Shown here piece after piece: positions 3,705 to 31,263 of a stretch of DNA of 44,400 bases. This DNA comes from an uncultured Candidatus Saccharibacteria bacterium (GTDB taxonomy: Bacteria; Patescibacteriota; Minisyncoccia; Phycocordibacterales; JAACPR01), in NCBI GenBank assembly GCA_964534415.1, contig CAZHOL010000001.1, forward strand, positions 1 to 44,400. Direction: 5' to 3'. The stretch's first letter is position 1; the number at the start of each line of letters is the position of its first letter. The position numbers were made by a program, and so were the translations under genes. The notes below the pieces were generated by a model. The model saw only the letters and a program-made list of their open reading frames with translations. It was not told where the DNA came from and did not search any database.

Positions 3705-4718
3705 ATGGGATTTTTCACACCAAAATTGGGTATTGATTTGGGTACGGCAAATACGCTTGTTTTTGTACCGGGAAAGGGAATCGTTTTGAACGAACCTTCC
3801 GTCGTTGCGATTTCCGAGCAGGACAACAAAATTCTCGCCGTAGGTCTCGAAGCCAAGGAAATGATCGGTCGAACTCCAGAGAGCATCGTTGCATATCGTC
3901 CAATGCGTGACGGCGTCATCGCCGACTATCGTGTAACCGAGGCTATGCTTTCATATTTTTTTAATAAAGCTCTCGGCAAATGGAATTTTTTCAAACCCGA
4001 GGTGATGGTTTCTGTACCTGCTGGTGTAACTTCAACAGAGAGACGCGCGGTGATCGAGGCTGCCATCAAAGCCGGTGCCAAAAACGCCTATGTTGTGAAA
4101 GAACCAATTCTTGCGGCGATTGGTGCGGGAATTCCTATTCATGAAGCTCAGGGCCGAATGATCGTCGACATCGGAGGAGGAACAACTGACGTGGCCGTTA
4201 TCTCGCTCGGAGGAATCGTGGCTTCAAAATCTGTGAAATGTGCCGGCAACAAAATCGACGCGGCAATTTGTGACTACATCAAGAAAACTTTCAATCTCGC
4301 CATCGGTGACAAAACTGCAGAGCAAATCAAAATCAAGGTCGGGTCCGCCATTTTTCTCGAAGATGAATTGGAAATGACAATCAAGGGTCGCGACTTCCTG
4401 ACTGGTTTGCCTCGTTCCGCCGACATCAAGACAAATGAAATTGTGAAAGCTATCAGTAAAGAACTTTACGAAATTATCAAAGCCATCAAAGACGTTTTGC
4501 AGGACACTCCGCCTGAATTGGCTTCTGATATTATCGATAACGGTGTCACTATGACCGGAGGATCGTCGCTGTTGCGTAACTTTCCAGAGCTAGTTTTCCG
4601 TCGAACCGGTGTGAAAGCCACTCTCGCCAAGGACGCCTACTATTGTGTTGCGAAGGGAACAGGAATCGCGCTGCGACATTTGGATACTTATAAAAAGACG
4701 ATTATTGCGAAGCAGTAG
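3705..4718 (+). CDS. mreB: Rod-shape actin homologue MreB (paralogue 1)
   Basis: GIDLGTANTLVFVPGKGIVLNEPSVVAI, DIGGGTTDVAVISLGG, MTGGSSLL. Upstream TTGTAA-17-TATACT (3666-3694). Confidence 0.92.
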   Translation: MGFFTPKLGIDLGTANTLVFVPGKGIVLNEPSVVAISEQDNKILAVGLEAKEMIGRTPESIVAYRPMRDGVIADYRVTEAMLSYFFNKALGKWNFFKPEVMVSVPAGVTSTERRAVIEAAIKAGAKNAYVVKEPILAAIGAGIPIHEAQGRMIVDIGGGTTDVAVISLGGIVASKSVKCAGNKIDAAICDYIKKTFNLAIGDKTAEQIKIKVGSAIFLEDELEMTIKGRDFLTGLPRSADIKTNEIVKAISKELYEIIKAIKDVLQDTPPELASDIIDNGVTMTGGSSLLRNFPELVFRRTGVKATLAKDAYYCVAKGTGIALRHLDTYKKTIIAKQ

Positions 4719-9237: not shown

Positions 9238-9283
9238 TATGTCAGAAAATCGAAGCATAAAAAAATATTGGAGAACAAAAGTC

Positions 9284-10321
9284 ATGCCGTTTCTCTCGAA
9301 CGACATCGGAATCGATTTGGGAACTGCAAACACACTCGTCTATGTTCCAGGCAAGGGAGTTGTAATCAATGAGCCATCGGTTGTTGCAATTAATCAGAAA
9401 ACCGGCCGAGTAGTTGCGGTCGGGCACGATGCTCGCAAAATGTTGGGGAGAACTCCACAACATCTCACTGCTGTTCGTCCACTCGTCGACGGTGTCATTT
9501 CAGATTTCGAAGTCACCGAGGAAATGATTGCGTATTTCGTACGAAAATCTCAGGAGAATAACAAAAAATTGCTCGGCCCACGAGTAGTGATTGGTGTTCC
9601 TTCGGGAATTACGAACGTGGAAACTCGCGCCGTCCGCGATGCAACATTGAATTCCGGTGCCCGTGAGGTACACATTGTCGAGGAACCAATGGCAGCAGCG
9701 ATTGGAATTCGTCTACCCGTTAATGAACCTGTCGGAAGCATGGTTATCGATATCGGCGGAGGAACAACTGATATAGCCGTCATTTCTCTCGGCGGAATTG
9801 TTCGTTCGAAAAATCTAAAAATTGCCGGAGACAAAATGAACAACGACATCATCTCGTACATTCGTAGTGAATTTAAAATTCTCATCGGCGAGAGAACAGC
9901 AGAAGAAGTTAAAAAGGAGGTCTGCAAAATTTTTCCAGACAAAGAACCTCTCGAGGCGGTTATTCGCGGACGTGACTTGATCACTGGTCTACCACGAGAG
10001 GTCGTCATCACTGACTCGGACCTGCGCGAAGCGCTTCAATCATCTTTTGATATTTTGATTGACTCAACAAAGGAGGTTCTCGAGACAACACCTCCAGAAA
10101 TTGTGGCCGACATTATGCAACGCGGAATCTACATGACTGGTGGCGGTGCGCTGATAAAGGGAATCGATACTATGCTTTCTGAAGCTCTCTCAATGCCAGT
10201 CTATGTTGCTCCAGAACCACTGACTGCGGTGGCGAGAGGTACGGGTATAATTCTCGAAAATCTCGAGGTTTACAAGGATATTTTAATTGCCAAAGAAGAT
10301 GACTTACCTCCAAAGAAGTAG
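9284..10321 (+). CDS. mreB: Rod-shape actin homologue MreB (paralogue 2)
   Basis: DIGIDLGTANTLVYVPGKGVVINEPSVVAI, DIGGGTTDIAVISLGG, MTGGGALI. Start chosen at ATG 9284 (GGAGAA 9270-9275) instead of 9239. Confidence 0.92.
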   Translation: MPFLSNDIGIDLGTANTLVYVPGKGVVINEPSVVAINQKTGRVVAVGHDARKMLGRTPQHLTAVRPLVDGVISDFEVTEEMIAYFVRKSQENNKKLLGPRVVIGVPSGITNVETRAVRDATLNSGAREVHIVEEPMAAAIGIRLPVNEPVGSMVIDIGGGTTDIAVISLGGIVRSKNLKIAGDKMNNDIISYIRSEFKILIGERTAEEVKKEVCKIFPDKEPLEAVIRGRDLITGLPREVVITDSDLREALQSSFDILIDSTKEVLETTPPEIVADIMQRGIYMTGGGALIKGIDTMLSEALSMPVYVAPEPLTAVARGTGIILENLEVYKDILIAKEDDLPPKK

Positions 10322-11112: not shown

Positions 11113-11364
11113 ATGAAACGGGTTTTGTTCGGAATTTTTTTGATAATATCTGCCTTTATTTTCCCTTGGTGGGTTAGTGTTGCTCTCGTATTTTTCGGCG
11201 CCCTCTATTTCAATAATTTATATGAAGCCATCATTGTCGGAATGGTTATCGATCTGACTTATGGAGTGAATATAGAAATATATGGTTTCAATTTGATTTT
11301 CACATTTGCACTGACATTGATGCTGTATGTGTTGTCCATAGTTCGTAAAAGAATTTTAATTTAA
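11113..11364 (+). CDS. mreD: Small polytopic membrane protein in the MreD position
   Basis: 83 aa, three hydrophobic segments, lying between mreC and mrdA. Assigned by synteny only, and shorter than typical MreD. Confidence 0.5.
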   Translation: MKRVLFGIFLIISAFIFPWWVSVALVFFGALYFNNLYEAIIVGMVIDLTYGVNIEIYGFNLIFTFALTLMLYVLSIVRKRILI

Positions 11365-13055
11365 TGCTCTTCCGAAAAAACTTTAACAAAAGAATTTACC
11401 ACCACATTGATCCAGATGAAATTTTTATTGATTCAACAAACTTGCCGGGATTCGACACAGATCAGTTCGAAGGTAGAATCGAAAAACCAATTTCAACTAA
11501 AACTTTTTTCTTTGTTGGATTATTTTTCGTGCTAATCGTTTTTATCTTTCTTGGTAAAAGTTGGTACATACAAATTAGTGAAGGAGATAAATATGCAGAA
11601 CGTAGTGCAAACAACATGCTGAGACACACTCTGATTTTTTCAGAACGAGGTTTAATTTACGATGTAAACAGCGTCCCGTTGGCATGGAACGAGTCTGGCG
11701 AACCTAATTCATATAATTTGCGAAAATATATCGAAAAGCCGGGGTTTTCAAACTTGCTCGGCTATGTTTCGTATCCAAAAAAAGATTCTGCAGGATTCTA
11801 TTACGACAAAACAATTTCTGGAGTTGATGGTGTAGAAAAATTTTTCGAATCGACACTTCAAAAAGAAAATGGCTTGAGAATAATTGAAACGAATGCATTG
11901 AATGAAGTCGTTTCAGAAAACACAATCAGACCTCCTCTCAAGGGAGACAATGTTCACCTGACTATTGATTCAGAAGTTCAGGGTGCACTGTATAATTCTG
12001 TGAAGACAATTGTAGATCAGGCAGGATTCGTAGGTGGCGGTGCGGTCATTATGGATGTTCACAATGGAGATTTGCTCGCACTCGTTAATTACCCAGAATT
12101 TGATTCGAATACAATGACTTCTGGTTTAGACACAAAAAAAATTAATTATATGTTGCGCGATTCACGAAAACCTTTCTTGAATCGAATTACGCAAGGACTA
12201 TATACTCCAGGTTCTATTATGAAGCCGTTCGTGGCGTTCGGAGCTTTACAAGAGAGGATAATAAATCCTACCGACAACATTATTTCTACTGGCTCGATTT
12301 CAATTCCTAATCCATACAATCCAGATAATCCGTCAATTTTTAACGATTGGAAAGCTCACGGCCCTGTTGATGTTCGCAAGGCAATTGCATATTCATCAAA
12401 CGTATATTTCTATGAAGTTGGTGGTGGTTACAAAGACCTAGTTGGACTAGGTATTGAACGTATAGAAAAATATTTTCGTAAATTTGGTTTTGGAAAACCG
12501 GTAAAGAGCGAACTGTTTTCTGAATTGGCAGGTACAATTCCAAGTCCTGATTGGAAGAAGAAAGTTTTCAATGATGATTGGAGATTGGGTGACACTTACT
12601 TTACATCAATTGGGCAATACGGAACACAGGTCACTCCATTGCAGGTTGTGCGAGCATATTCGGCTATTGCAAATAGAGGAACATTGATTGATCCAAAAAT
12701 TATTGCGGAGCCATCGCAACCAGTAGTTACTGAAAAAATCGACGGAATAGATTCGTGGGTGTGGGACACTATTCATTTGGCTATGAGAGATACTGTGTTG
12801 TTTGGAACTTCAAAAGGATTGAATTACCCAGATTTTGAAATCGCTGGAAAAACCGGTACAGCCGAATTGGGTGTTTCAAAGGAGAATGTGAACTCGTGGG
12901 CGATTGGTTTCTTCCCATACAAAAATCCGCGCTTTGCTTATGTGTTCATGCTCGAGAGTGGAAAGTGTACTAACACTGTTGGAGGTGTCGCTGCAGCCAA
13001 AAATTTCTTCGATTGGATGAAGATTTATCATTCAGAATATCTATCAGCTAACTAA
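11364..13055 (+). CDS. mrdA: Penicillin-binding protein 2 (elongasome transpeptidase)
   Basis: SxxK (PGSIMKPF), SxN (YSSNVYF), KTG (GKTGTAE). TAATG coupling to mreD. Confidence 0.88.
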   Translation: MLFRKNFNKRIYHHIDPDEIFIDSTNLPGFDTDQFEGRIEKPISTKTFFFVGLFFVLIVFIFLGKSWYIQISEGDKYAERSANNMLRHTLIFSERGLIYDVNSVPLAWNESGEPNSYNLRKYIEKPGFSNLLGYVSYPKKDSAGFYYDKTISGVDGVEKFFESTLQKENGLRIIETNALNEVVSENTIRPPLKGDNVHLTIDSEVQGALYNSVKTIVDQAGFVGGGAVIMDVHNGDLLALVNYPEFDSNTMTSGLDTKKINYMLRDSRKPFLNRITQGLYTPGSIMKPFVAFGALQERIINPTDNIISTGSISIPNPYNPDNPSIFNDWKAHGPVDVRKAIAYSSNVYFYEVGGGYKDLVGLGIERIEKYFRKFGFGKPVKSELFSELAGTIPSPDWKKKVFNDDWRLGDTYFTSIGQYGTQVTPLQVVRAYSAIANRGTLIDPKIIAEPSQPVVTEKIDGIDSWVWDTIHLAMRDTVLFGTSKGLNYPDFEIAGKTGTAELGVSKENVNSWAIGFFPYKNPRFAYVFMLESGKCTNTVGGVAAAKNFFDWMKIYHSEYLSAN

Positions 13056-17077: not shown

Positions 17078-17391
17078 CAAAAATGATTAGCAAAGCAGAA
17101 CAAACACAGGTCAGATGCACAAAAATCCTTTTGGGTGCAACTGTCGTTTTGATGCTTGCGTATTTGTATACAGTAAATAGCACAGCATTCAGTGCAGCGG
17201 CTCAGGAATCTCTTTCTGATGAAATTGCAGAAACACAATCATCAATCGGAGAACTTGAATTAGATTTCATTGAAAAGAGCAACACAATTCATCCTGACTT
17301 GGCAAATGATTTTGGGTTAATTAAAATGGACAAAACAGAAGCAACATTCATAGCGAGAGGAACTTCAGACAAATTGTCATTTAATGAATAG
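17074..17391 (+). CDS. ftsL: FtsL-like small bitopic division protein
   Basis: 105 aa, one TM segment (ILLGATVVLMLAYLY) followed by a short coiled region. ATGA coupling to rsmH. Assigned by synteny. Confidence 0.55.
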   Translation: MTKMISKAEQTQVRCTKILLGATVVLMLAYLYTVNSTAFSAAAQESLSDEIAETQSSIGELELDFIEKSNTIHPDLANDFGLIKMDKTEATFIARGTSDKLSFNE

Positions 17392-19111
17392 TAAAAATAT
17401 CACAATAAAATGGAGATTGTATTTCATATTTGCAATTTTCGTTTTCATTGCTGTTATTATCGAAGCGCGCCTGTATTACCTGCAGATTGTAAAACACGAT
17501 GAATATGTAGATATTGCAGACAGACAATATTCGAAGGGGGTTAGAAAGCTGTTTGACCGCGGATCAATTTATTTTACTTCAAAAAACGATTCTGAAATTG
17601 CGGCCGCCACTTTGAAGATGGGGTACAATGTTGCAATAAATCCGAGCATCATTATGTCGCCCGAGGATGTGTACAACAATCTATCATTTGATTTAGAATT
17701 AAATGTCGAAGATTTTCTATCGCGCGCAGAAAAAGCAAATGACCCATATGAAGAGTTGGCAAAAAGAATAGAACCGGAATTAGGAGAAAAAATTAAAGAA
17801 AAGAAGTTGATGGGTGTCAGTGTTGAGAAAGAAAAATGGCGTTTCTATCCTGGAAAATCTCTCGCCTCACACGTTGTGGGCTTTTTGGCGTTTGATCAAG
17901 AGAATAAATACCGTGGCCAATATGGCTTGGAACGATATTATGATGAAACCCTCGATAGAACAGATGTGCAAGTCTTCAAAAACTTTTTTGTTGAGATATT
18001 TTCAAACTTGAAAAATATTATTGCTAGCGATAACACTAACAAGGGATCAATATATTTGACCATTGAGCCAGTGGCGCAAGGTTTCGTTGAGAGTGAGTTG
18101 GAAAATTTAAATAAAAAATATTCTCCGAAAAAAGTCGGCGCAATCGTCATGAATCCTATGAATGGTGAAATTACTGCAATGGCATTGAATCCGACGTTTG
18201 ATTTGAATGAATTTACAAAAGTTGAAAGCTCGACCGTATTTCAAAACAATTTGGTTGAAAGTGTTTATGAGCTCGGGTCAATTATGAAGCCTATCACGAT
18301 GGCCATTGGTCTCGATCAGGGCGTGGTGACTGCGGCATCGACCTATAATGACAAGGGCTCTATCACTATGGACGGCTATACATTTTCTAACTATGACAAA
18401 AAGGCGAGAGGGATAGTAAATATGCAGGAAGTTTTAAACCAGTCGTTGAATACTGGAGTTGCACACGTCGTTTCGTTGCTCGGCAAAACTTTCCCAGAAA
18501 AAATGAAAAATATTTTTGGAAACAAAACTGGAATCGATTTGCCAAATGAAGTTTCAAATATCATCAGAAATTTGGATAGTCATGTTGCAATTGAATATGC
18601 TACAGCATCATTCGGACAGGGTGTGGCCGTTAGTCCAATATCAATGGTTACTGCCCTATCAGCACTCGGAAATGGTGGGAAAATTGTTCAGCCCCATGTT
18701 GTGAAAAAAATTGAATATCAATCTGGATTTTTGAAAGAAGTTCCTGTGAGAGAGCCAGTGCAAATTTTCAAGAAGGAAACTTCAGAAGAAATTTCGAGAA
18801 TGTTGACGCGTGTCGTTGATGAAGCCTTGCGTAAAGGTGAAGTGGCTTTACCACAATACAGTATCGCAGCAAAAACCGGAACGGCGCAGATTCCGCAGCC
18901 AGGCGGCGGCTACTATTCTGACCGTTATCTGCACTCGTTTTTCGGATATTTCCCCTCATATGACCCCAAATTTATCGTATTTTTGTATATAATAGAGCCA
19001 AGGGGGGCAGAGTATGCTTCAGAAACTTTGACTGATAGTTTTATGAATATCACAAAGTTTTTGATCAACTATTACGAAATCCCACCTGACAGAGAGAGCG
19101 TAGTAAAATGA
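17384..19111 (+). CDS. ftsI: Division transpeptidase, PBP3/FtsI-like
   Basis: SxxK (GSIMKPI), SxN (NQSLNTG), KTG (AKTGTAQ), N-terminal TM segment, dcw position. Confidence 0.82.
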   Translation: MNSKNITIKWRLYFIFAIFVFIAVIIEARLYYLQIVKHDEYVDIADRQYSKGVRKLFDRGSIYFTSKNDSEIAAATLKMGYNVAINPSIIMSPEDVYNNLSFDLELNVEDFLSRAEKANDPYEELAKRIEPELGEKIKEKKLMGVSVEKEKWRFYPGKSLASHVVGFLAFDQENKYRGQYGLERYYDETLDRTDVQVFKNFFVEIFSNLKNIIASDNTNKGSIYLTIEPVAQGFVESELENLNKKYSPKKVGAIVMNPMNGEITAMALNPTFDLNEFTKVESSTVFQNNLVESVYELGSIMKPITMAIGLDQGVVTAASTYNDKGSITMDGYTFSNYDKKARGIVNMQEVLNQSLNTGVAHVVSLLGKTFPEKMKNIFGNKTGIDLPNEVSNIIRNLDSHVAIEYATASFGQGVAVSPISMVTALSALGNGGKIVQPHVVKKIEYQSGFLKEVPVREPVQIFKKETSEEISRMLTRVVDEALRKGEVALPQYSIAAKTGTAQIPQPGGGYYSDRYLHSFFGYFPSYDPKFIVFLYIIEPRGAEYASETLTDSFMNITKFLINYYEIPPDRESVVK

Positions 19112-23100: not shown

Positions 23101-23601
23101 ATGAACCTCACCTCCACCTACATCAATCGCGCCGGCGAAACTTTCCCTGTGAAATATTACGAAGGTATCGAACCAACAGAAAATCTGGAAGGGAAAGTTC
23201 TTCATTCGGTGCACGCATTTTGCTTTTACAATGGTAAAATGGTTTTGATTAATCATCGGGGTCGGGCGTGGCAACCGCCGGGAGGGCATATCGAGCCGGG
23301 TGAAAACTACACCGACGCCTGCATTCGCGAAGTTCACGAAGAAACCAATATGAAAGTTCTGCATCAGGAATTGATCGGCTTTCAAGATGTCTATGAGCCG
23401 AATCAAATCACTCGGCAAATTCGCATGTTTTGCATTGTCGAACCATATGGCCCATTCGTCTCCGACCCCGACGGCGACGTAACCGAAATTCGCCTAATTG
23501 ATCCCGCAGATGTCACGAAATACTTTAACTGGCGCGAGATAGGTGCGAGGGTGATGGAGAGGGCTTTGCAATTATTAAAATCTGCTATAATTCAAGAATG
23601 A
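23101..23601 (+). CDS. NUDIX hydrolase
   Basis: Nudix box GGHIEPGENYTDACIREVHEETN (GX5EX7REUXEEXG-like). Confidence 0.88.
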   Translation: MNLTSTYINRAGETFPVKYYEGIEPTENLEGKVLHSVHAFCFYNGKMVLINHRGRAWQPPGGHIEPGENYTDACIREVHEETNMKVLHQELIGFQDVYEPNQITRQIRMFCIVEPYGPFVSDPDGDVTEIRLIDPADVTKYFNWREIGARVMERALQLLKSAIIQE

Positions 23602-25541
23602 ACAAAAATCTGAAGTGGCTCGCGACGATCTCAATTTTTTTATTTATCTTACTTCCGATGCTCCGTGTTTCTGCGGAAAATTACAGATCATATTTCATAG
23701 ATACATTTTTTGCAACACTAAATGTCAATTTAGATAGCACTGTTGATGTTGAGGAAGTAATAAAATATGACTTCACTGGACAATATAACAAGGGTTGGCG
23801 TTCGATTTCTCATAAAGGTATTGGGGCCATTACGGATATTTACGTTTTAGATTCTGAAGGTCAGCCACTACAATATTCTCCTAACAGATTAGAAAAAACA
23901 GACCCTTCAAGCTGGGGCAAATTTACATATAGAAAAGAAAATGGTTACACGAACATCGAGTGGTACTATAATGAAAAAGATTCTTCACCGTCGTGGACGA
24001 TGGTCTATAAGGTGCATGGCCTAATTGGGTTCTACGAAAATCACGATGAAGTCTATTGGAATCTCTTCACTGCATATGAAGTCCCTGTAGTAAATATTGT
24101 TAGTAAAGTTGTTCTGCCAAACACTGCAAAGCATCTTCAAAACGCCTTCTATCGCACATACGCTTCCAGTGCGGCGCACAATTTCGATTTTGGTGAAAAT
24201 AACACCTTCATTTTCCGAGCCAATAACGCCATACCAAATGAAGCCTTAACTATCGCTCTTGGTTTCGAAAAAGGTGTCATTACTCCGTCGGCATATTGGA
24301 AAGATTTATTTTTGTTGAATCCAGGATTTATTGTGGGGGTACTTATCATTTTATTAATGATAGTTTTCCTATTTATTAATTATTACTTCAGAGAGTATCG
24401 TACGAAGCGCGATAAAGCAATTGTGGTCGAATTTGAAGCGCCAGAAAAGCTTCGTCCTACAGAGTTAGATTTGATTTACAAAGAGAGTTTTTCAAAGAAA
24501 ACATGGGCAGCAACAATTGTAGATTTGGCAGTTCGTGGCTATTTGAGAATTGAAGAGGTTCAAGGAAAAAAGATGCCTGTTTTTGTCAAAGTTATCAGTA
24601 CCGCTTTTGCGGCCTTTTGGATATTATTCCTTCTTGCTGTTGCGTATTCCTCTTTTGTTAATGGGCAATCATTTAACCTTGTTGCATTGGCACCATTAAT
24701 TATTATCATTGCCGTAGTGTACAAGCTCGTGTTTAAAAGTAAGAATGATTACGAGATTAGTCTCATCAAAGAGTATGCGGACGATGCCGAATTAAAGTTA
24801 TATGAAAAATCTTTTTTGACTGCCCTGTTGCCTGGTCACGGTACGTTTTCAACTAGACGAATGAAAAATTCTCCCAGTTTATCAAGAGAGCTATATATAA
24901 GAATGAAAAAGATTGAGGAAAATATGTTAAAACAATTTACATCTCAGAATCCTGGTGTCTATCAGAAATCTCTTACATTAAAGATCAAGAGAAAGATAGT
25001 GATGTATACTTCTATTGGATTCATTTTTGTTGCATTTTATTTTTTGTCTTCTTTGCTCGGTAGATCATATATATTTGATCAAGCAATGGTTTTCACAATA
25101 TGTTTTGTCTCGACAGTTTTATTATATTTATACTTCTACGTATACAACCCTCGTCTGTCAAAATCAGGAGAGGACCTTTGGCGAAAAATTGAGGGATATA
25201 GATTATATCTGAAAACCGCTGAAAGGTATCGTGCACAAAATCTTACCCCGGAGATATTTGAAAAGTTTCTCCCTTACGCCATTATTTTTGGAATTGAGAA
25301 AAAATGGGCTAAGAATTTTGAGTCAGTTGTTAAGGATAGTCCCAATTGGTATCATTCATCACCTTCAATCATTGGTGGATCATCTTTTGCATCTGGAAAT
25401 AGTTTTTCTATTTCTGGTTTTTCGACCTCATTTTCTTCAAGTTTCTCCTCGGCCTTTTCTTCTTCTGGTGGCGGAGGAGGTTCAGGCGGTGGTGGAGGAG
25501 GAGGGGGCGGTGGTGGAGGAGGTGGCGGGGGCGCCAGTTAA
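23598..25541 (+). CDS. DUF2207-like multi-pass membrane protein with a poly-Gly C-terminal tail
   Basis: Signal-like N-terminus, an extracytoplasmic domain of about 220 aa, several TM segments, and the C-terminal tail SSGGGGGSGGGGGGGGGGGGGGGGAS. This architecture is typical of DUF2207 as I recall it. ATGA coupling to the Nudix gene. Confidence 0.6.
   Translation: MNKNLKWLATISIFLFILLPMLRVSAENYRSYFIDTFFATLNVNLDSTVDVEEVIKYDFTGQYNKGWRSISHKGIGAITDIYVLDSEGQPLQYSPNRLEKTDPSSWGKFTYRKENGYTNIEWYYNEKDSSPSWTMVYKVHGLIGFYENHDEVYWNLFTAYEVPVVNIVSKVVLPNTAKHLQNAFYRTYASSAAHNFDFGENNTFIFRANNAIPNEALTIALGFEKGVITPSAYWKDLFLLNPGFIVGVLIILLMIVFLFINYYFREYRTKRDKAIVVEFEAPEKLRPTELDLIYKESFSKKTWAATIVDLAVRGYLRIEEVQGKKMPVFVKVISTAFAAFWILFLLAVAYSSFVNGQSFNLVALAPLIIIIAVVYKLVFKSKNDYEISLIKEYADDAELKLYEKSFLTALLPGHGTFSTRRMKNSPSLSRELYIRMKKIEENMLKQFTSQNPGVYQKSLTLKIKRKIVMYTSIGFIFVAFYFLSSLLGRSYIFDQAMVFTICFVSTVLLYLYFYVYNPRLSKSGEDLWRKIEGYRLYLKTAERYRAQNLTPEIFEKFLPYAIIFGIEKKWAKNFESVVKDSPNWYHSSPSIIGGSSFASGNSFSISGFSTSFSSSFSSAFSSSGGGGGSGGGGGGGGGGGGGGGGAS
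25467..25532 (+). repeat. GGN codon tract encoding 21 Gly and 1 Ser
   Basis: Read directly: ggt ggc gga gga ggt tca, then 16 consecutive GGN codons. Confidence 0.95.
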
Positions 25542-25584: not shown

Positions 25585-25932
25585 ATGTCAACAACACCAA
25601 CAGCACAAGCATTAGAGCAATTAAAGCGTGAAATTGAGGCTACAAAGAGAGAACTGCAATCCAAACAAAACGAGCAAAAGAAAATTTCTGAAAAATTGCG
25701 AACAGTAGAGCGAGAGCATCAAAATTTTGAAAACAAATTGCGCGAAAAAGAAAGGGAGCTCGAAAAATTTAAATCAGAAGGGGCAAAAACTCAGACTGAA
25801 TTACTTGAGATTAATACAGAACAACAAAACATCGAACGCCAGATTTCAGCACTAGAAAAAGAATTATCTGACAGCACTCGCGAGATGGATAATATGGTTC
25901 GAGAGTTGCAGAAATTGGCTTCAAAAAAATAA
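25585..25932 (+). CDS. Hypothetical coiled-coil protein
   Basis: 115 aa, heptad-like and rich in E/K/Q/L throughout. Confidence 0.6.
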   Translation: MSTTPTAQALEQLKREIEATKRELQSKQNEQKKISEKLRTVEREHQNFENKLREKERELEKFKSEGAKTQTELLEINTEQQNIERQISALEKELSDSTREMDNMVRELQKLASKK

Positions 25933-25973: not shown

Positions 25974-26033
25974 TTGATAAAACACTCATCTGGTAATACA
26001 ATTTATTTAGAGGAACATTTTCAACCAAGGAGG
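25974..26033 (+). promoter_or_regulatory. Putative promoter TTGATA-17-TACAAT plus consensus SD AAGGAGG
   Basis: TTGATA 25974-25979, TACAAT 25997-26002, AAGGAGG 26027-26033 (5 nt before ATG 26039). Confidence 0.55.
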
Positions 26034-26038
26034 TTTAT

Positions 26039-26641
26039 ATGTCACGTCGGAAGAAAAAGGGACACAAGAATAATTTTAGACTTGTGACCAGGTATCTGCA
26101 CTGTAAACATAAAAAAGTCAGCTTTAACAGACATCACCGACTGCCAGAGTGCCGTGGCGGCAAGATTACGAGCAGTAACTGTGTATTAGTAGACGTGGAG
26201 TCGCACAATGCTTTCAATGCACTTGTGCTTGTTGCAAGCCGACTCTGCTGTATCCTTGAAAAATTTGTCTGCGCAGAACATATTGCCTTTGCTCTGAACA
26301 CCATTACTCGCATTTTTGATTATTCCATGCGCGACGAATACAAGAATGTAGCGGAATTGAAGTCGGCTCATGACATCAAAAAAGATGAGTCTTATCAGTT
26401 GCTGTTGAGGTTTGCATCAATGCTCAAGCATGTCAAAATGCGAAATGTTCTACCTGAACATTTAGATTATGCTGTAATGAAGATTCGAACAATTTCGAGA
26501 ATCATTGCAGGATCAAGACATCGTTTATTGCGCCCAGATCGACTGGTAAAGCAATTCAATAGTATCTGGTTGCCCGATTGTGATCCTATTCACTATGGAT
26601 ATTGGGCTGAAAAGAAAAAACGTAAAAAACACCACAAATAG
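26039..26641 (+). CDS. Basic protein with an N-terminal Cys-less HNH/HNN-spaced motif (paralogue 1)
   Basis: HHRLPECRGGKITSSNCVLVDVESHNAFN fits HH-x2-P-x3-GG-x5-N-x8-H-x3-N, the spacing of the HNH beta-beta-alpha-Me finger. Both termini are lysine-rich. Confidence 0.6.
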   Translation: MSRRKKKGHKNNFRLVTRYLHCKHKKVSFNRHHRLPECRGGKITSSNCVLVDVESHNAFNALVLVASRLCCILEKFVCAEHIAFALNTITRIFDYSMRDEYKNVAELKSAHDIKKDESYQLLLRFASMLKHVKMRNVLPEHLDYAVMKIRTISRIIAGSRHRLLRPDRLVKQFNSIWLPDCDPIHYGYWAEKKKRKKHHK

Positions 26642-26666
26642 AAAGGAGGAAGATTCCCCCAAACGG

Positions 26667-26698
26667 CCCCGACGCAAATCGGGGTCTGTTTCTTTCTT
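26667..26698 (+). terminator. Intrinsic terminator
   Basis: CCCCGA (26667-26672) / TCGGGG (26679-26684) followed by TCTGTTTCTTTCTT. Confidence 0.65.
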
Positions 26699-26763
26699 GC
26701 TTGATTTTTAACATAAATAGGCTAGCATAATATCTGGACGCACAACCAAGAAAGGAATAAGCG

Positions 26764-27144
26764 TTGCATCAGAAAAGACTGAGGAGAGTTGATACATATA
26801 TCCAAGAGGGAGAAGATTCCTCCGAGATTGTGTATGATGTTCATCACCGCAGACCAAAATGCCGCGGTGGCAAGGATACAGCGGATAACTGTGTGGAGGT
26901 CGACAGAACTTCACACGAGGTGTTTAATTCTTTGGTACAGCTCGCAGCTAAATACTGTGGTATCAAGGAATGGAAAGTAGAGGCCTGTCACATTGCGAAG
27001 GTCCTGAATGTAATTACAACGATTCAACAAAGACTTTTGGTTGACCCACAAACGGGAAAACTAAAAGAACCCAGAGTCGTTGTGTCTGAGTTTAATCAGG
27101 TGTGGTTGCCGGAACGGGATCCGATTCGGCACTCTGGAATGTAA
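26764..27144 (+). CDS. Basic protein with an N-terminal Cys-less HNH/HNN-spaced motif (paralogue 2)
   Basis: HHRRPKCRGGKDTADNCVEVDRTSHEVFN, and a C-terminal FNQVWLPERDPI that matches FNSIWLPDCDPI of paralogue 1. The TTG start at 26764 is uncertain. Confidence 0.55.
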   Translation: MHQKRLRRVDTYIQEGEDSSEIVYDVHHRRPKCRGGKDTADNCVEVDRTSHEVFNSLVQLAAKYCGIKEWKVEACHIAKVLNVITTIQQRLLVDPQTGKLKEPRVVVSEFNQVWLPERDPIRHSGM

Positions 27145-27193
27145 GCGTAAATAAACTTTCAAATAAGGAGGTGGTATCGCCCACATGGGGGCA

Positions 27194-27233
27194 GGGTTCC
27201 GAGCAAGTCAGTGATTTGCTTGGGACCCTTTAA
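27194..27233 (+). terminator. Intrinsic terminator (long imperfect hairpin)
   Basis: GGGTTCCGAGCAA (27194-27206) pairs with TTGCTTGGGACCC (27216-27228), followed by TTTAATT. Confidence 0.55.
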
Positions 27234-27253
27234 TTATATATAATCACAGCAAT

Positions 27254-28018
27254 ATGAAAGACTTCAAAAAGAAAAAAACCGACTGGGGCAAAGTCGCTAA
27301 CTGGTACGACGAACACCTAAAAGAATCGAATAATTATCATTCGCAGGTAATTTTACCGAACCTCGCGCGTCTCATTGATTTGAAGCCGACCGAATCACTA
27401 ATCGAGTTGGGTTGCGGTCAGGGATTTTTTCTCCAGCACCTTTTTGAAGTTTCAAAAAATCTCGCGGGTGTTGATTTGGGTCCTGAATTAATTTCAATAG
27501 CAAAGCAAAATAATCCAAAAATAAATTATCTAGTTGCTTCTGCAGATGACACACATATTTTTCCAGAAGACAAATTCGATGTCGTGACAATTATCTTGGC
27601 TCTTCAAAACATGAAGAATTTACATGCAGTTGTTTCTAATGTTGCGCGCCTAATGAAAAAAGACGGGCGAGCATATATTGTTTTAAATCATCCCGCATTT
27701 CGCATTCCAAAACAAAGCGACTGGCATTTTGACACTAGAAATTTCGAACAACATCGTCTAATTAAAAAATACATGTCAGAATTGGAAATTCCAATTGATA
27801 TGAATCCTGGAACTCGTGGTAAAAAAGAAATGACCGTTTCATTTCACCGACCATTGCAGGTTTATTCGAAAGCTTTCAATAAAAATGGGTTGGCAATTAC
27901 AAAAATCGAAGAGTGGATTTCTCACAAGAAAAGTGAAATGGGGAAGAGAGCTCTCGCCGAGGACCGCGCCCGCAAAGAATTTCCAATGTTTATGTGTCTA
28001 GAGCTTAAAAAGATTTAG
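27254..28018 (+). CDS. Class I SAM-dependent methyltransferase, substrate unknown
   Basis: Motif I LIELGCGQGFF and motif II-like DVVTIILALQN. No DPPY/NPPY or PCQ DNA-methyltransferase motifs. Confidence 0.8.
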   Translation: MKDFKKKKTDWGKVANWYDEHLKESNNYHSQVILPNLARLIDLKPTESLIELGCGQGFFLQHLFEVSKNLAGVDLGPELISIAKQNNPKINYLVASADDTHIFPEDKFDVVTIILALQNMKNLHAVVSNVARLMKKDGRAYIVLNHPAFRIPKQSDWHFDTRNFEQHRLIKKYMSELEIPIDMNPGTRGKKEMTVSFHRPLQVYSKAFNKNGLAITKIEEWISHKKSEMGKRALAEDRARKEFPMFMCLELKKI

Positions 28019-28020
28019 CT

Positions 28021-29301
28021 TTACTCAATCTCATCCCAAGAAACCAAATTCCAGGATCCTGAAGGTCCTGAGGTAAATTCAATATTCGAAATTCCGGTTT
28101 CGTAATTAATTGTTGTTCCGCCGTCCATTATTATTTTATTTGCCGTAGCCTGTTTAGCAGTTGCTCCGCCAGTAAAATACATCGTTCCATTTTGTGCATT
28201 TAATATTACAGATTCTGTGCCACCTGAAACTTTGATTGCGTAATTTGATCCTGCGCTGCCGCATCCTGTAGTGTTGGGACAGGCGCTAGTTGTTACTGCC
28301 ATAATTTGGCTTCCTGAAGTTCCAGAATTTTGCATTGAGCCACCTTCAATGATTTCGATTTTTCCGTCAGACACAATCACGCCGCTATTCGCACCGTAAT
28401 TCGTTCCGAGTTTAATGACTCCTGCTCCCGAAACTAGAATTTTTCCAGTGACCCATACTGTATCGGTTAAAGTTAGCACAGCACTTTCTGTAACAGTTAA
28501 GTTGCCTTCAATTTTTGCGGGGCCAATTGAGGCGGTTTCAACTCCGTCATAAACTTGATTCCCAGATAGAATATCGCCCGCTTCCGCAACAGATTTCCAC
28601 TCATCGATATTTCCTGCAGATATTGGCATAGGTTCTTCTGATGGATTTGTTCTAGATGTATCGCAAGATTTATTATTGCCTGACCCAACTTTACAAAACA
28701 AATCTCCAAAAATCGTAGAATTTTTTACTTCATTCGCCCAAGCAATTCCGCCAGATGCTCCAACATTCACACCAGAAATTTTTCCGAGAGATGCGCTGGT
28801 TGATGCGGAAATTGCGCTGCCTGTAATTGAGGTGTATCCCGACCCTACAATGTCTCCATTTGAGTATACATTTCCATTAATAGTTGCACCGCCAGACAAT
28901 TCAAAACCTCCTTGTCCAGATTGAATTCCATAATTAAAGCTCACACCAACACCTTGTCTAATTTGCAGAAAAAGATTTCTTTGAAAATCTCCTAACTCAG
29001 AAACGATGCTAATAGTTTTGCCTTCAAATGAATCAGTTGTGTTGATGGTTGCAGTTCCATTCGACAGTGTTAATGTCTCGGCAGAATCTATCGACATGTT
29101 TTTCTTTAGTTTATATAAAGTCTCCTCGCTAGCGCTGTTTGCAATTATGAAAGCTTCCTTTGATTCCAAAAACGCTCGCCCGATTTTGTAACTATTTAAA
29201 ACAGGATTAGAAACTCCATAAATAATAACCATTGAGATTACCAAAAAGAAAATAATATTTGTAATTACCACATATCCTTTTTTGTAGTTTCTTTTATTCA
29301 T
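28021..29301 (-). CDS. Large pilus-associated protein, PilX-like N-terminus plus a Gly/Ser/Thr-rich repetitive domain
   Basis: KKGYVVITNIIFFLVISMVIIYGV N-terminus (no Phe1/Glu5). Degenerate repeats such as GGATINGNVYSNGDIVGSGYTSITGSAISA suggest a beta-helix-like fold. It is the last gene of the pilin operon, with an 8-nt overlap. Confidence 0.65.
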   Translation of the reverse strand: MNKRNYKKGYVVITNIIFFLVISMVIIYGVSNPVLNSYKIGRAFLESKEAFIIANSASEETLYKLKKNMSIDSAETLTLSNGTATINTTDSFEGKTISIVSELGDFQRNLFLQIRQGVGVSFNYGIQSGQGGFELSGGATINGNVYSNGDIVGSGYTSITGSAISASTSASLGKISGVNVGASGGIAWANEVKNSTIFGDLFCKVGSGNNKSCDTSRTNPSEEPMPISAGNIDEWKSVAEAGDILSGNQVYDGVETASIGPAKIEGNLTVTESAVLTLTDTVWVTGKILVSGAGVIKLGTNYGANSGVIVSDGKIEIIEGGSMQNSGTSGSQIMAVTTSACPNTTGCGSAGSNYAIKVSGGTESVILNAQNGTMYFTGGATAKQATANKIIMDGGTTINYETGISNIEFTSGPSGSWNLVSWDEIE

Positions 29302-29806
29302 ATGAATGCCTCAAAATTGCAAATCCGTTAAAACTTTTGGTTTTAGTTTCTTTATCTGCGGTGTAGGTGATGTCGAGCTCAACTTTCATTGCCTGAGAAA
29401 CTGTTGATGTTGCTTGAACAAAGTAGAGACGAGTGACTGTCATGTCGCTCGGAGTTAAAAAATTTTCTTCTCCAGAATCCTCTGTGTATGTCACTCGTCC
29501 CGAAGCAAATGAAAATAATTTCGTAACGGGCGTTTCGTTTTCAAAACTGTTAATGGTCAAAGTACCTTCATCAATGTTCAATTCGCTATTAGAAAGATCA
29601 ATGGAATCGCCAGTTCTAATATCTCTAGTGATTCTGTCTACGATTGTAATACCGACTCGATCAACTCTCGGTTCTACTGCTAATTTTTTATAAATCCCAT
29701 ACATTTGCATTAAAAGATAAACAATTGCACCAAGAACAATAACAATTCCGGCCGTATAGAACAGCATTTCTATCAAACTGAAGCCTTTTTTGTGGTTAAT
29801 TTTCAT
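29294..29806 (-). CDS. Type IV minor pilin/pseudopilin (PilW position)
   Basis: Prepilin signal KKG/FSLIEMLF with Phe+1 and Glu+5, followed by a hydrophobic helix. Confidence 0.8.
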   Translation of the reverse strand: MKINHKKGFSLIEMLFYTAGIVIVLGAIVYLLMQMYGIYKKLAVEPRVDRVGITIVDRITRDIRTGDSIDLSNSELNIDEGTLTINSFENETPVTKLFSFASGRVTYTEDSGEENFLTPSDMTVTRLYFVQATSTVSQAMKVELDITYTADKETKTKSFNGFAILRHSYE

Positions 29807-30269
29807 AGGTATTATGAATTAACATTTCAGTCGTGCGTGTCACCGTGTTTTCTCCTTCAGTCCATGAAACTGTGATAGATGCGAGTAGAGTATTTGGGTC
29901 AATGCTTCCTGAATCTGAAATTACGTCATTCGCATCTCTTTTAACTTCATAAAGTTTAAAAGTTCGGGCATATAAATTTTGATGCAGAATGGCGGTTGAC
30001 GTCGAAACAAAATTTTCTCCGTTCCAATGCAAATAATATGGAGTTTCTTTCTCGAGTGGTGAAATGTTTGCTGACCAACTCTGATCGCGCATAAATTGCA
30101 GAGCCTCGGAAGTTTCTTCAAATAACAATGCTGTCTGCACATTGTGACTATTTTTCATTGAAATATTTATGTAAGCTAAAAGGGAAGAAGTAATCGCTAC
30201 GCCGACGAGCGTAACAATTGCAGATGCGATAATTATTTCAACAACACTGAATCCCTTTTTGTAATTCAC
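29796..30269 (-). CDS. Type IV minor pilin/pseudopilin (PilV position)
   Basis: Prepilin signal KKG/FSVVEIII with Glu+5. Confidence 0.8.
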   Translation of the reverse strand: MNYKKGFSVVEIIIASAIVTLVGVAITSSLLAYINISMKNSHNVQTALLFEETSEALQFMRDQSWSANISPLEKETPYYLHWNGENFVSTSTAILHQNLYARTFKLYEVKRDANDVISDSGSIDPNTLLASITVSWTEGENTVTRTTEMLIHNTYEN

Positions 30270-30273
30270 TTTG

Positions 30274-30744
30274 CTATTCTACCATCGAAACATCTCCCAA
30301 TTTTCCGATTTTCAACCGAATTGAGTTTTCTGAGTCGGTTTTTTCAGTAATTGTAATAGTAATAGGACCGTTATGATTTATGTCGCCCTTCAGTTTTGAA
30401 AAAACGACAACATCGTCCTCACCAGGAATGTCATTTGCGATTTCAAATTTACTGTTGATCTCATTTCTTTCATTACTCTCATTACTTGAGATGTATGATG
30501 AGCCTACAAAATATGTGAAAGAGTCCTCGCTGAATTTTATTCCGTAGTTCTGACCGTTTTTGCCAGTAATTGCATTGCTTCTGGCGAGTTCCAATTTTGA
30601 GACTATGTTGTCGGAGATTGCCTGAATTTCTTTTTCGCTAACTTCGCCACTGAATGACTTGATTGTTACATATGAAATTATTGCAAGAATTGCGATTGAA
30701 AAAAGCAACTCAAGAATTGTGAATCCGCGTTTGTTGAATCTCAT
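30274..30744 (-). CDS. Type IV minor pilin/pseudopilin (FimT/GspH position)
   Basis: Prepilin signal KRG/FTILELLF with Glu+5. Confidence 0.8.
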   Translation of the reverse strand: MRFNKRGFTILELLFSIAILAIISYVTIKSFSGEVSEKEIQAISDNIVSKLELARSNAITGKNGQNYGIKFSEDSFTYFVGSSYISSNESNERNEINSKFEIANDIPGEDDVVVFSKLKGDINHNGPITITITEKTDSENSIRLKIGKLGDVSMVE

Positions 30745-30760
30745 TTAAATATTTTAACAT

Positions 30761-30790
30761 AAAAACCGCACTAATCGTTTGCGGTTTTTA
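30761..30790. terminator. Hairpin flanked by A-run and T-run (terminator of yqeY, possibly bidirectional)
   Basis: CCGCA (30766-30770) / TGCGG (30780-30784), flanked by AAAAA and TTTTT. Confidence 0.6.
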
Positions 30791-30807
30791 CAAATCAAAA
30801 TTTATAT

Positions 30808-31263
30808 TTAGTTGAAAGAGGCTTCTACGACTGTCTTCACCAAACCACCGTCTGCCTTGCCCTTGAGGTCCTTCATAATTGCTCCGGTCAAAACCCCAGC
30901 TTTTGTTTTGTCCGTTACACCTAACTCCGTTTTTTTAGCTTCAACAACTTTCTTGATTTCTTCTTCACTCATCATGGCTGGCAAGTACTTCTCAATTATT
31001 GCCAACTCTGCTTTTTCAGAGTCTGCCAATTCTGGTCGTCCTCCTGCAACGAATTGTTCAATCGAATCTTTTCGCTGTTTTGAAGCTCGCATCAACACCC
31101 GCATCGCTAATTCGTCATCGACGACTTCCTGTGGAGTTTTTCCTGTGGCAACCAATTCATTTGTGAAAGCTGACAAAATTCCTCGAAGAACGTTCAATCT
31201 GTCGGTGTCTTTTGCTTTCATTGCTTCCTTCAAATCTGTTTTAATTGTTTCAAAAATTGACAT
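30808..31263 (-). CDS. yqeY: GatB/YqeY-domain protein
   Basis: LKEAMKAKD..RLNVLRGILSAF, KQRKDSIEQF, and a GKADGG tail, typical of YqeY. Confidence 0.88.
   Translation of the reverse strand: MSIFETIKTDLKEAMKAKDTDRLNVLRGILSAFTNELVATGKTPQEVVDDELAMRVLMRASKQRKDSIEQFVAGGRPELADSEKAELAIIEKYLPAMMSEEEIKKVVEAKKTELGVTDKTKAGVLTGAIMKDLKGKADGGLVKTVVEASFN

Follow-up and report, generated by a model that had tools for sequence, protein, structure and literature searches.

The stretch of DNA analyzed here comprises 44,400 nucleotides from an uncultured Candidatus Saccharibacteria bacterium (assembly GCA_964534415.1, contig CAZHOL010000001.1, positions 1 to 44,400) and is referred to as the window. It carries two adjacent genes, here named the long and the short gene, which encode paralogous proteins of 200 and 126 amino acids (aa) with one HNH-type motif each. 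The motif and the predicted structures suggest that both proteins are metal-dependent nucleases or nickases, a reading to which we assign a probability of roughly 60%. The most likely activity would be metal-dependent cleavage or nicking of DNA, with RNA as the less likely substrate. We favor a nuclease because the catalytic residues are intact in both proteins, the pair is not obligatory and signs of a defense island are missing. Both proteins belong to what is here named the Asn branch, a rare, coherent and unannotated cellular HNH family which is delimited in this study and which combines a distinct architecture with a familiar fold and a familiar chemistry.

The two genes and their motifs are located as follows, where pI is the isoelectric point, pLDDT the predicted local distance difference test score and dN/dS the ratio of nonsynonymous to synonymous substitution rates:

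26039..26641, + strand: long gene, 200 aa, ATG start, pI 10.1 (list of open reading frames (ORFs), BLASTP, dN/dS, AlphaFold)
26764..27144, + strand: short gene, 126 aa, TTG start, pI 8.4 (ORF list, AlphaFold with a pLDDT of 92.5, dN/dS)
26132..26218, + strand: HNH-type motif of the long protein, residues 32-60, HHRLPECRGGKITSSNCVLVDVESHNAFN (predicted strands at residues 29-33 and 48-52, predicted helix at 53-69)
26842..26928, + strand: HNH-type motif of the short protein, residues 27-55, HHRRPKCRGGKDTADNCVEVDRTSHEVFN (profile, AlphaFold, Foldseek)

A first-pass annotation, made from the sequence alone, had described adjacent genes for proteins of 200 and 126 aa with three common segments; the ORFs were found in place and all of the quoted peptides were present. 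BLASTP aligned the N-terminal 86 residues of the long protein to the short protein with 45% identity (E 4e-21), and a second aligned segment (E 1e-7) spanned the helical and the C-terminal part. The two proteins can be regarded as true paralogues with a similarity far above chance. The long protein consists of a Lys/Arg-rich disordered N-terminal tail, a beta-beta-alpha core, two copies of a helical hairpin, the tail FNSIWLPDCDPI and a Lys-rich C-terminal tail. In the short protein the core is followed by a single helical hairpin, a C-terminal helix and the tail FNQVWLPERDPI. That the helical segment is doubled in the long protein had been proposed before and was supported by the second BLASTP segment, by the helices of the AlphaFold model and by the same duplication in distant relatives. 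Here, residues 98-187 of the long protein, which hold the second copy of the helical hairpin, align to residues 37-125 of the short one. The internal repeat was weak when the long protein was compared with itself (E 0.001, in a tiny search space). The pair had also been called highly basic. This holds for the long protein, in which 42 Lys and Arg residues stand against 18 Asp and Glu residues, and not for the short protein with its pI of 8.4.

For comparison, six loci were available, namely the window and the related loci L001 to L004 and L022, the last of which holds only the 3' end of the long gene on its contig. Support for TTG as the initiation codon of the short gene comes from the orthologues in L002, L003 and L004, which also begin at TTG with the same N-terminus, MH(E/Q)KRLRRV. 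The dN/dS ratio was 0.06 for the long gene (codon comparison of L001 and L002) and 0.11-0.22 for the short gene (orthologue codon comparisons), with the neighboring methyltransferase gene (~0.05) as a yardstick. Judged by these ratios, both ORFs are real genes under purifying selection. Conservation outside the source genome was thus found for the genes, both in the purifying selection across orthologues and in relatives at other loci.

The spacing that had been reported for the motif, HH-x2-P-x3-GG-x5-N-x8-H-x3-N, is exact in the sequence. Likewise, the Cys residues that would serve as zinc ligands are replaced by Asp and Ser and the last His by Asn, as had been stated. Of the zinc-knuckle Cys pairs, the positions of the second pair hold Asp and Ser, and no CxxC was found upstream. 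The description of the motif as "Cys-less" is correct for the zinc-ligand positions, whereas cysteines do occur elsewhere in both proteins.

Several comparisons support the assignment of this motif to a genuine HNH or His-Me finger, with the beta-beta-alpha topology appearing in the predicted structures. The AlphaFold2 model of the short protein, built with the family alignment as input, reached a pLDDT of 92.5 and showed strands at residues 24-28 and 43-47, the motif helix at 48-65 and further helices at 74-92 and 103-114. The model of the long protein (pLDDT 77) contained the same core and, beyond it, four helices; its tails were disordered, with a pLDDT below 50 for residues 1-10 and 192-200. 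When a 25-member family profile was compared with the PDB sequences, the top match was the motif of the colicin E7 DNase (E 0.0037), followed by a group II intron maturase, Cas8-HNH fusions and McrA. In the profile alignment the HH, N, H and terminal N of the family coincide with the motif residues of colicin E7, which we take to be H544/H545, N560, H569 and H573 in the published numbering. The spacing of these residues is 14/9/4 in the family and 15/9/4 in colicin E7. A Foldseek search of PDB with the model of the short protein likewise placed HNH cores on top (pyocin S2, colicin E9, McrA and Cas8-HNH), with a root mean square deviation of 0.9 Å over 35 columns for colicin E9 and of 0.9 Å over 30 columns for McrA. 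Among the predicted viral structures of BFVD, nearly all Foldseek matches were HNH or homing endonucleases, including MobB, MobC and MobE, and the best one was an uncharacterized marine-virus protein of 70 aa (E 2.6e-4). The earlier reading as a beta-beta-alpha-Me finger is therefore supported both by the profile comparisons and by the predicted structures.

Curated libraries gave only sub-threshold matches, in line with the statement that the family was not recognized. No HNH model of Pfam, NCBIfam, PHROGs or PADLOC scored above threshold for either protein. Sub-threshold matches to PF01844 were found in 15 of 25 family members (best E 0.0033), and the long protein did not match PF01844. Further matches of this kind were those to PHROG 740, an HNH endonuclease (E 6e-4), to the type IV restriction HNH model of PADLOC for the short copy (E 0.004) and to the IscB models of NCBIfam, which remained far under their cut-off and covered the same motif. 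A weak match to NF058586, the "HNH nuclease-like protein HlpB", extended from the motif into the next helix (residues 20-86, profile positions 15-81 of 99). With 13-19 bits against a cut-off of 130, the proteins of the window are not members of that family. By fold and motif they can be placed in the HNH/His-Me finger superfamily, but outside PF01844 as curated and outside the zinc-knuckle subclass (CxxC ... CxxC, McrA/Cas9-like), and they fit no named family.

The catalytic positions are conserved throughout. HH, N and H were kept in all 58 family sequences with a located motif, and the last position was N or H in 57 of them (56 by pattern and P0012 by eye); P0020 carries T instead. Both paralogues of the window retain HH, N, H and N, so that the proposal of a nuclease with an inactivated or immunity-like partner is not supported.

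The alignment with colicin E7 suggests a mechanism in which the two residues of the invariant HH pair differ in their roles. The second one (short protein His28, long protein His33) would be the general base. One divalent metal would be held at the scissile phosphate by the first His of the pair (27/32) together with the His of the helix (51/56) and the Asn at the end of the motif (55/60), and the conserved Asn (42/47) would brace the beta hairpin. Asn is used as the last metal ligand by the HNH domain of Cas9, by T4 endonuclease VII and by I-HmuI. The helical hairpin and the Trp-Leu-Pro tail may pack on the small core in place of zinc knuckles, and the Lys/Arg-rich tails of the long copy probably provide non-specific binding to nucleic acids. 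This build is unusual, with the metal finger placed ahead of its support, which consists of a helical hairpin and a Trp-Leu-Pro tail instead of zinc knuckles.

The nearest characterized relatives are the colicin-type DNases, by motif only, and the HNH proteins of phage homing and packaging, while the nearest actual relatives are miniature phage proteins. With the DNases of colicins E7 and E9 (PF01844 clan), which gave the best profile and structure matches, the family shares the beta-beta-alpha fold, the order HH...N...H...(H/N) and the absence of zinc-knuckle Cys residues. However, the last ligand is His in the colicins and Asn in the window family. Moreover, the colicin motif is C-terminal (residues ~82-133 of 131-135 aa), whereas the finger of the window family is N-terminal with the helical support after it. 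The genes of the window also lack a cognate immunity gene and belong to a cytoplasmic, chromosomal setting, in contrast to a secreted toxin. The HNH domains of Cas9 and IscB, T4 endonuclease VII and I-HmuI share the terminal Asn, which in these enzymes is compatible with Mg-dependent catalysis. They differ in having Asp before the catalytic His, where the window family has His-His, and in being domains of large proteins or dimeric resolvases; a relationship was detected for the core motif only. With T4 MobB, MobC and MobE and the packaging-associated phage HNH proteins the genes of the window have in common that they are small and free-standing with promoters of their own; the presence or absence of the long copy between close relatives may be a further likeness. 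Unlike those, they lack a DNA-recognition domain and a phage or intron context, and the short gene is fixed and syntenic.

The family is small. Among 5.8 billion proteins, close homologues formed six clusters for the short and two clusters for the long protein, all of them unnamed and metagenome-derived. An exhaustive profile search of 1.84 billion representative proteins yielded 32 clusters, none of which had a functional name. Every relative was unnamed or a "hypothetical protein", and nearly all came from metagenome assemblies. A scan of the GTDB species representatives with patterns of the close family found nothing, and a broader pattern found two metagenome-assembled genomes only. Loci L015 to L018 and L021 were set aside as weak or irrelevant matches.

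The last position of the motif splits the family into two branches. A His branch consists of miniature proteins, mostly of 63-81 aa, with the consensus HHRKPRSxGG..N..V..H.AWH.LF.N..P..IA..IN..WLDPDY. Members were located on 24 viral contigs of IMG/VR (L023 to L046) and on phage-like contigs, one with a capsid gene (L009:7001-7246) and one with an integrase gene (L010:7001-7198). The profile of this branch matched colicin E7 with an E-value of 0.0008. The branch is common among genomes of uncultivated phages and is unannotated there. To our knowledge, these are about the smallest HNH proteins, and their small size could interest protein engineers. In the miniature members P0045, P0048, P0053 and P0056 the helix/WLDPDY module is duplicated internally.

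The Asn branch, to which the proteins of the window belong, is marked by the terminal Asn, an extra helical hairpin and a WLPxxDP tail. Its neighborhoods, compared for about 6-7 lineages, were cellular only and included gyrA, ftsEX/prfB, a pyridoxal-phosphate enzyme, a peptidase and similar genes. No match to the Asn branch was found in the collections of viral contigs, phage genomes and plasmids that were searched. Distant long-form relatives carry very long basic N-terminal tails, and the duplication of the helical hairpin recurs among them.

The Asn branch appears to be closest to the miniature phage-borne family of 63-81 aa. Both were linked by hhalign (97.4% probability, E 1.3e-11) and by hmmsearch (down to E 1e-15), and they share the HHR-P-GG-N-V-H core, a helix followed by a W-L tail and a tendency to duplicate the helical module. 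The miniature proteins differ in that the final His is kept, the first helical hairpin is absent, the tail reads WLDPDY instead of WLPxxDP and the genes are found on viral contigs. The simplest reading would be a domestication from phage to cell. A path that leads from a phage protein of 63-81 aa to a fixed chromosomal gene agrees with the data, where the direction is our inference. Along such a path, a branch related to the miniature phage family would have settled on the chromosome as a single-copy gene, within a narrow range of uncultured bacteria with small genomes. A tandem duplication of the gene together with its leader would have followed, after which the upstream copy gained a second helical hairpin and the Lys/Arg-rich tails.

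The surroundings of the two genes, which bear on this history, contain the following features:

25585..25932, + strand: coiled-coil protein, 115 aa, upstream neighbor (sub-threshold coiled-coil-type matches, synteny)
25974..26002, + strand: promoter-like site of the long gene, TTGATA-17-TACAAT (signal scan)
26027..26033, + strand: Shine-Dalgarno sequence AAGGAGG of the long gene, 5 nt ahead of the ATG (read from the sequence)
26665..26686, + strand: G+C-rich hairpin with T-rich tail, terminator-like (scan; kept across related loci)
26701..26728, + strand: weaker promoter-like boxes of the short gene, TTGATT-16-TAGCAT (read from the sequence; below the scan threshold)
27160..27192, + strand: conserved non-coding stretch 3' of the short gene, AAGGAGGTGRTAA ... 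GCCCRCATGGGG (locus comparison)
27193..27229, + strand: long hairpin, terminator-like (scan; compensatory changes among relatives)
27254..28018, + strand: class I S-adenosylmethionine (SAM)-dependent methyltransferase (Methyltransf_11/25), downstream neighbor (domain library matches)

The common gene order of the six loci was coiled-coil gene, short gene and class I methyltransferase gene. The window, L001, L002 and L022 carried the long gene between the coiled-coil gene and the short one; L003 and L004 lacked it. A single copy was present in these two loci and in every distant relative whose flanks were examined. An obligate pairing of the two genes is not supported by these counts, with the long gene missing in two of the six loci. 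The N-terminal half of the long protein shared 45-50% identity with the local short proteins, whereas the next relatives reached 38-39%. Additionally, the leader motif CAACCAAGGAGG of the long gene is also found in the leader of the short gene, the common form being (C)AACCAAG(R)AGG. The common leader motif and this higher similarity to the local short proteins are evidence for a tandem duplication that included the leader and would be older than the compared genomes.

The later history of the long copy was less uniform. Between the window and L001 the amino acid identity was 64% for the long protein, 83% for the short protein and 88% for the methyltransferase. Between L001 and L002, however, the nucleotide identity was highest for the long gene (89%, versus 77% for the short and 82% for the methyltransferase gene), and the coiled-coil gene barely aligned. 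The synonymous divergence (dS) of the same two loci was 0.54, 0.99 and 1.3 for the long, short and methyltransferase gene, respectively. L022 carried a third, very different long-type C-terminus (..NVWLREGDSIRFDPYLKIPRHVLHRKKAKLRKVKK). The mosaic identities and the divergent version in L022 point to recombination or lateral exchange around a dispensable long gene. By these comparisons the long copy can be described as fast-evolving between lineages, dispensable and lineage-specific.

A number of observations weigh against the favored reading. Conserved HNH residues are no proof of catalysis, and metal-binding scaffolds can serve binding instead. PF01844 matched the short protein with 15.6 bits, below the gathering threshold of 21.4. 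The E-values of the Foldseek matches in PDB were weak (>0.2), as the core alone, about 35 residues, superposes. Whole-fold Foldseek searches found no match beyond this core for either model, and a function can therefore not be transferred from the remaining fold. A methyltransferase gene adjoins in only about 2 independent lineages of about 6 sampled. A first rival explanation would be an HNH scaffold that does not cut and serves as a small metal-stabilized module for binding nucleic acids or proteins, for example as an adaptor or activator of the methyltransferase, a nucleoid protein or an RNA-binding protein. We consider this unlikely, while giving it more weight than any other rival explanation. 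It would account for the pI of 10.1 and the Lys/Arg-rich disordered tails of the long copy, for the very long basic tails of its distant counterparts, for the strong expression signals of the long gene and for the housekeeping character of the chromosomal surroundings. It would also account for the class I methyltransferase next to family members in the window clade, in L006 with reversed order and, as an unrelated enzyme, in the gyrA clade. However, conservation of the general-base His and of every metal ligand extends through the whole family, which is typical of active HNH enzymes, and L007, L008, L012 and L047 have no methyltransferase neighbor.

A functional coupling of the HNH proteins to the adjacent methyltransferase appears doubtful. 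In L006 an orthologue of the methyltransferase (53% identity) adjoins a family member with 42% identity in the opposite order, while in the gyrA clade a different, unrelated class I methyltransferase follows the long-form gene; the four loci just mentioned lack such a neighbor. Both methyltransferases matched only generic class I families of the small-molecule or RNA type, and the domain libraries gave no match to a DNA-methyltransferase family for the enzyme of the window. Such a coupling could be taken further. The Asn-type proteins would then be the nuclease half of a lineage-specific module of HNH protein and class I methyltransferase, domesticated from the miniature phage HNH family and working as a minimal modification-linked nuclease system or as an RNA-processing pair. 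The long copy would be a fast-evolving, horizontally exchanged specificity variant under conflict-driven selection. We regard this extended proposal as improbable.

The first-pass annotation had also considered a selfish or defense element. For the short gene this was not supported, as it is syntenic among housekeeping genes and had no match in the collections of viral, phage and plasmid sequences, and PADLOC called no defense system at the locus. For the long copy, the presence and absence at one site and the mosaic history make a selfish or accessory character conceivable. In its explicit form, the long copy would be a selfish, free-standing HNH gene of the homing type that spreads among related genomes into one and the same intergenic site, and the short copy would be its domesticated or resident relative. 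The occupied site in the window, L001, L002 and L022 versus the empty one in L003 and L004, the conserved promoter of its own, the position between the stop codon and the terminator of the coiled-coil gene, the mosaic pattern between L001 and L002 and the viral Foldseek matches including the three Mob endonucleases would all agree with homing. Nevertheless, we judge it to have a slim chance. With its common leader and its closest similarity to the local short gene, the long copy rather looks like the product of a tandem duplication predating these genomes, and a dN/dS of 0.06 indicates host-like purifying selection. No recognizable sequence-specific DNA-binding domain was detected in scans with Pfam, NCBIfam and PHROGs, flanking repeats were not found, and the gene was not present on viral or plasmid DNA in the collections searched. 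The pattern of presence and absence comes from a sample of six loci only.

A toxin/immunity or anti-phage module, in which a nuclease would be combined with a protective or sensing paralogue and perhaps with the methyltransferase as modification arm, is the least probable of the explanations and in our view very unlikely. Besides the quick evolution of the long copy between lineages, it draws on weak PADLOC matches of the long protein to PbeA (E 7e-6), of the short protein to the type IV restriction HNH model mentioned above and of the methyltransferase to mad2 (6e-20). An identity of the long protein with PbeA was rejected, since none of the 11 other long-form relatives matched; with one match among 12 it is probably due to chance. 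The match to mad2 covered the methyltransferase domain only (query 23-151, profile 269-403 of 492) and probably reflects the generic class I fold, as the enzyme matched no DNA-methyltransferase family. Moreover, the catalytic residues are intact in both paralogues, the pair is not obligatory and the neighbors are housekeeping genes without a defense island. The reading as metal-dependent nucleases or nickases is therefore preferred over this module.

The promoter TTGATA-17-TACAAT of the first gene was recovered by the scan at the position listed above, and the ribosome-binding site AAGGAGG proposed for this gene is present as well. In L001 and L002 the long gene is likewise preceded by an equivalent, conserved promoter (TTGATT-16/17-TACAAT), and both promoter-like boxes of the short gene are kept in six loci. 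That each gene has signals of its own is correct insofar as the promoter-like and hairpin signals are conserved; the hairpin after the long gene, however, is not specifically its own. This hairpin (GGCCCCG..CGGGGTC with a T-rich tail) was kept in all loci compared, including L003 and L004. Because it is located directly 3' of the coiled-coil gene in these two loci, where the long gene is absent, it can be regarded as ancestrally the terminator of the coiled-coil gene. The long gene with its own promoter thus lies behind the coiled-coil gene's stop codon and ahead of this old terminator. Flanking direct or inverted repeats that would point to transposition were not found around the genes.

The T-rich tail of this first hairpin, TTTCTTTC (26689-26703), and the Shine-Dalgarno region ahead of the short gene, GAAAGGAA (26743-26757), are complementary, and the pairing is preserved in five loci. 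It could mask the ribosome-binding site of the short gene in read-through transcripts. Downstream of the short gene, the stretch 27160-27233 and its equivalents in L001 to L004 and L022 are better conserved than their surroundings. It contains the invariant AAGGAGGTGRTAA, a near-perfect extended Shine-Dalgarno sequence, which is followed by GCCCRCATGGGG and a hairpin of 15 bp (27193..27229). Four pairs of this hairpin are altered on both sides among relatives. The stretch could be an element of the 3' untranslated region, a decoy ribosome site or an attenuator. A small ORF after AAGGAGG at this place was rejected because its frame and length vary among the loci. Rfam matches on the terminator hairpins (SpF19 in the window only, BSnc120 and rimP in L004) were at chance level.

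The methyltransferase gene has no Shine-Dalgarno sequence. In the region 27237-27256, a conserved TATATAAT (TATAAT) ends 9 nt ahead of the ATG in all related loci and suggests that the mRNA is leaderless or nearly so. The coiled-coil gene occupies the same position in five related loci and occurs in two types with ~20-25% identity (window 25585-25932; L002:1486-1776; L004:487-771). It would be either extremely fast-evolving or replaced. Its matches to PbeC, JetC and SMC were dismissed as generic, being common to many unrelated coiled-coil families.

The window as a whole is core chromosome. It encodes PriA, two MreB proteins, RseP, two aminoacyl-tRNA synthetases, two PBP2-type proteins, a Mur ligase, DnaB, RmuC and a tRNA-Glu, a gene content that looks typical of an uncultured bacterium with a small genome and would fit a Patescibacteria/CPR-like organism. 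The MreB paralogues (3705-4718 and 9239-10321) and the PBP2-type transpeptidases (11364-13055 and 17384-19111) are located within 16 kb. Pilin-like genes are found on the minus strand downstream of the methyltransferase gene (28021-31263). A DUF2207 membrane protein (23598-25541) ends in about 26 glycines, which are encoded by a GGN repeat at 25466-25531.

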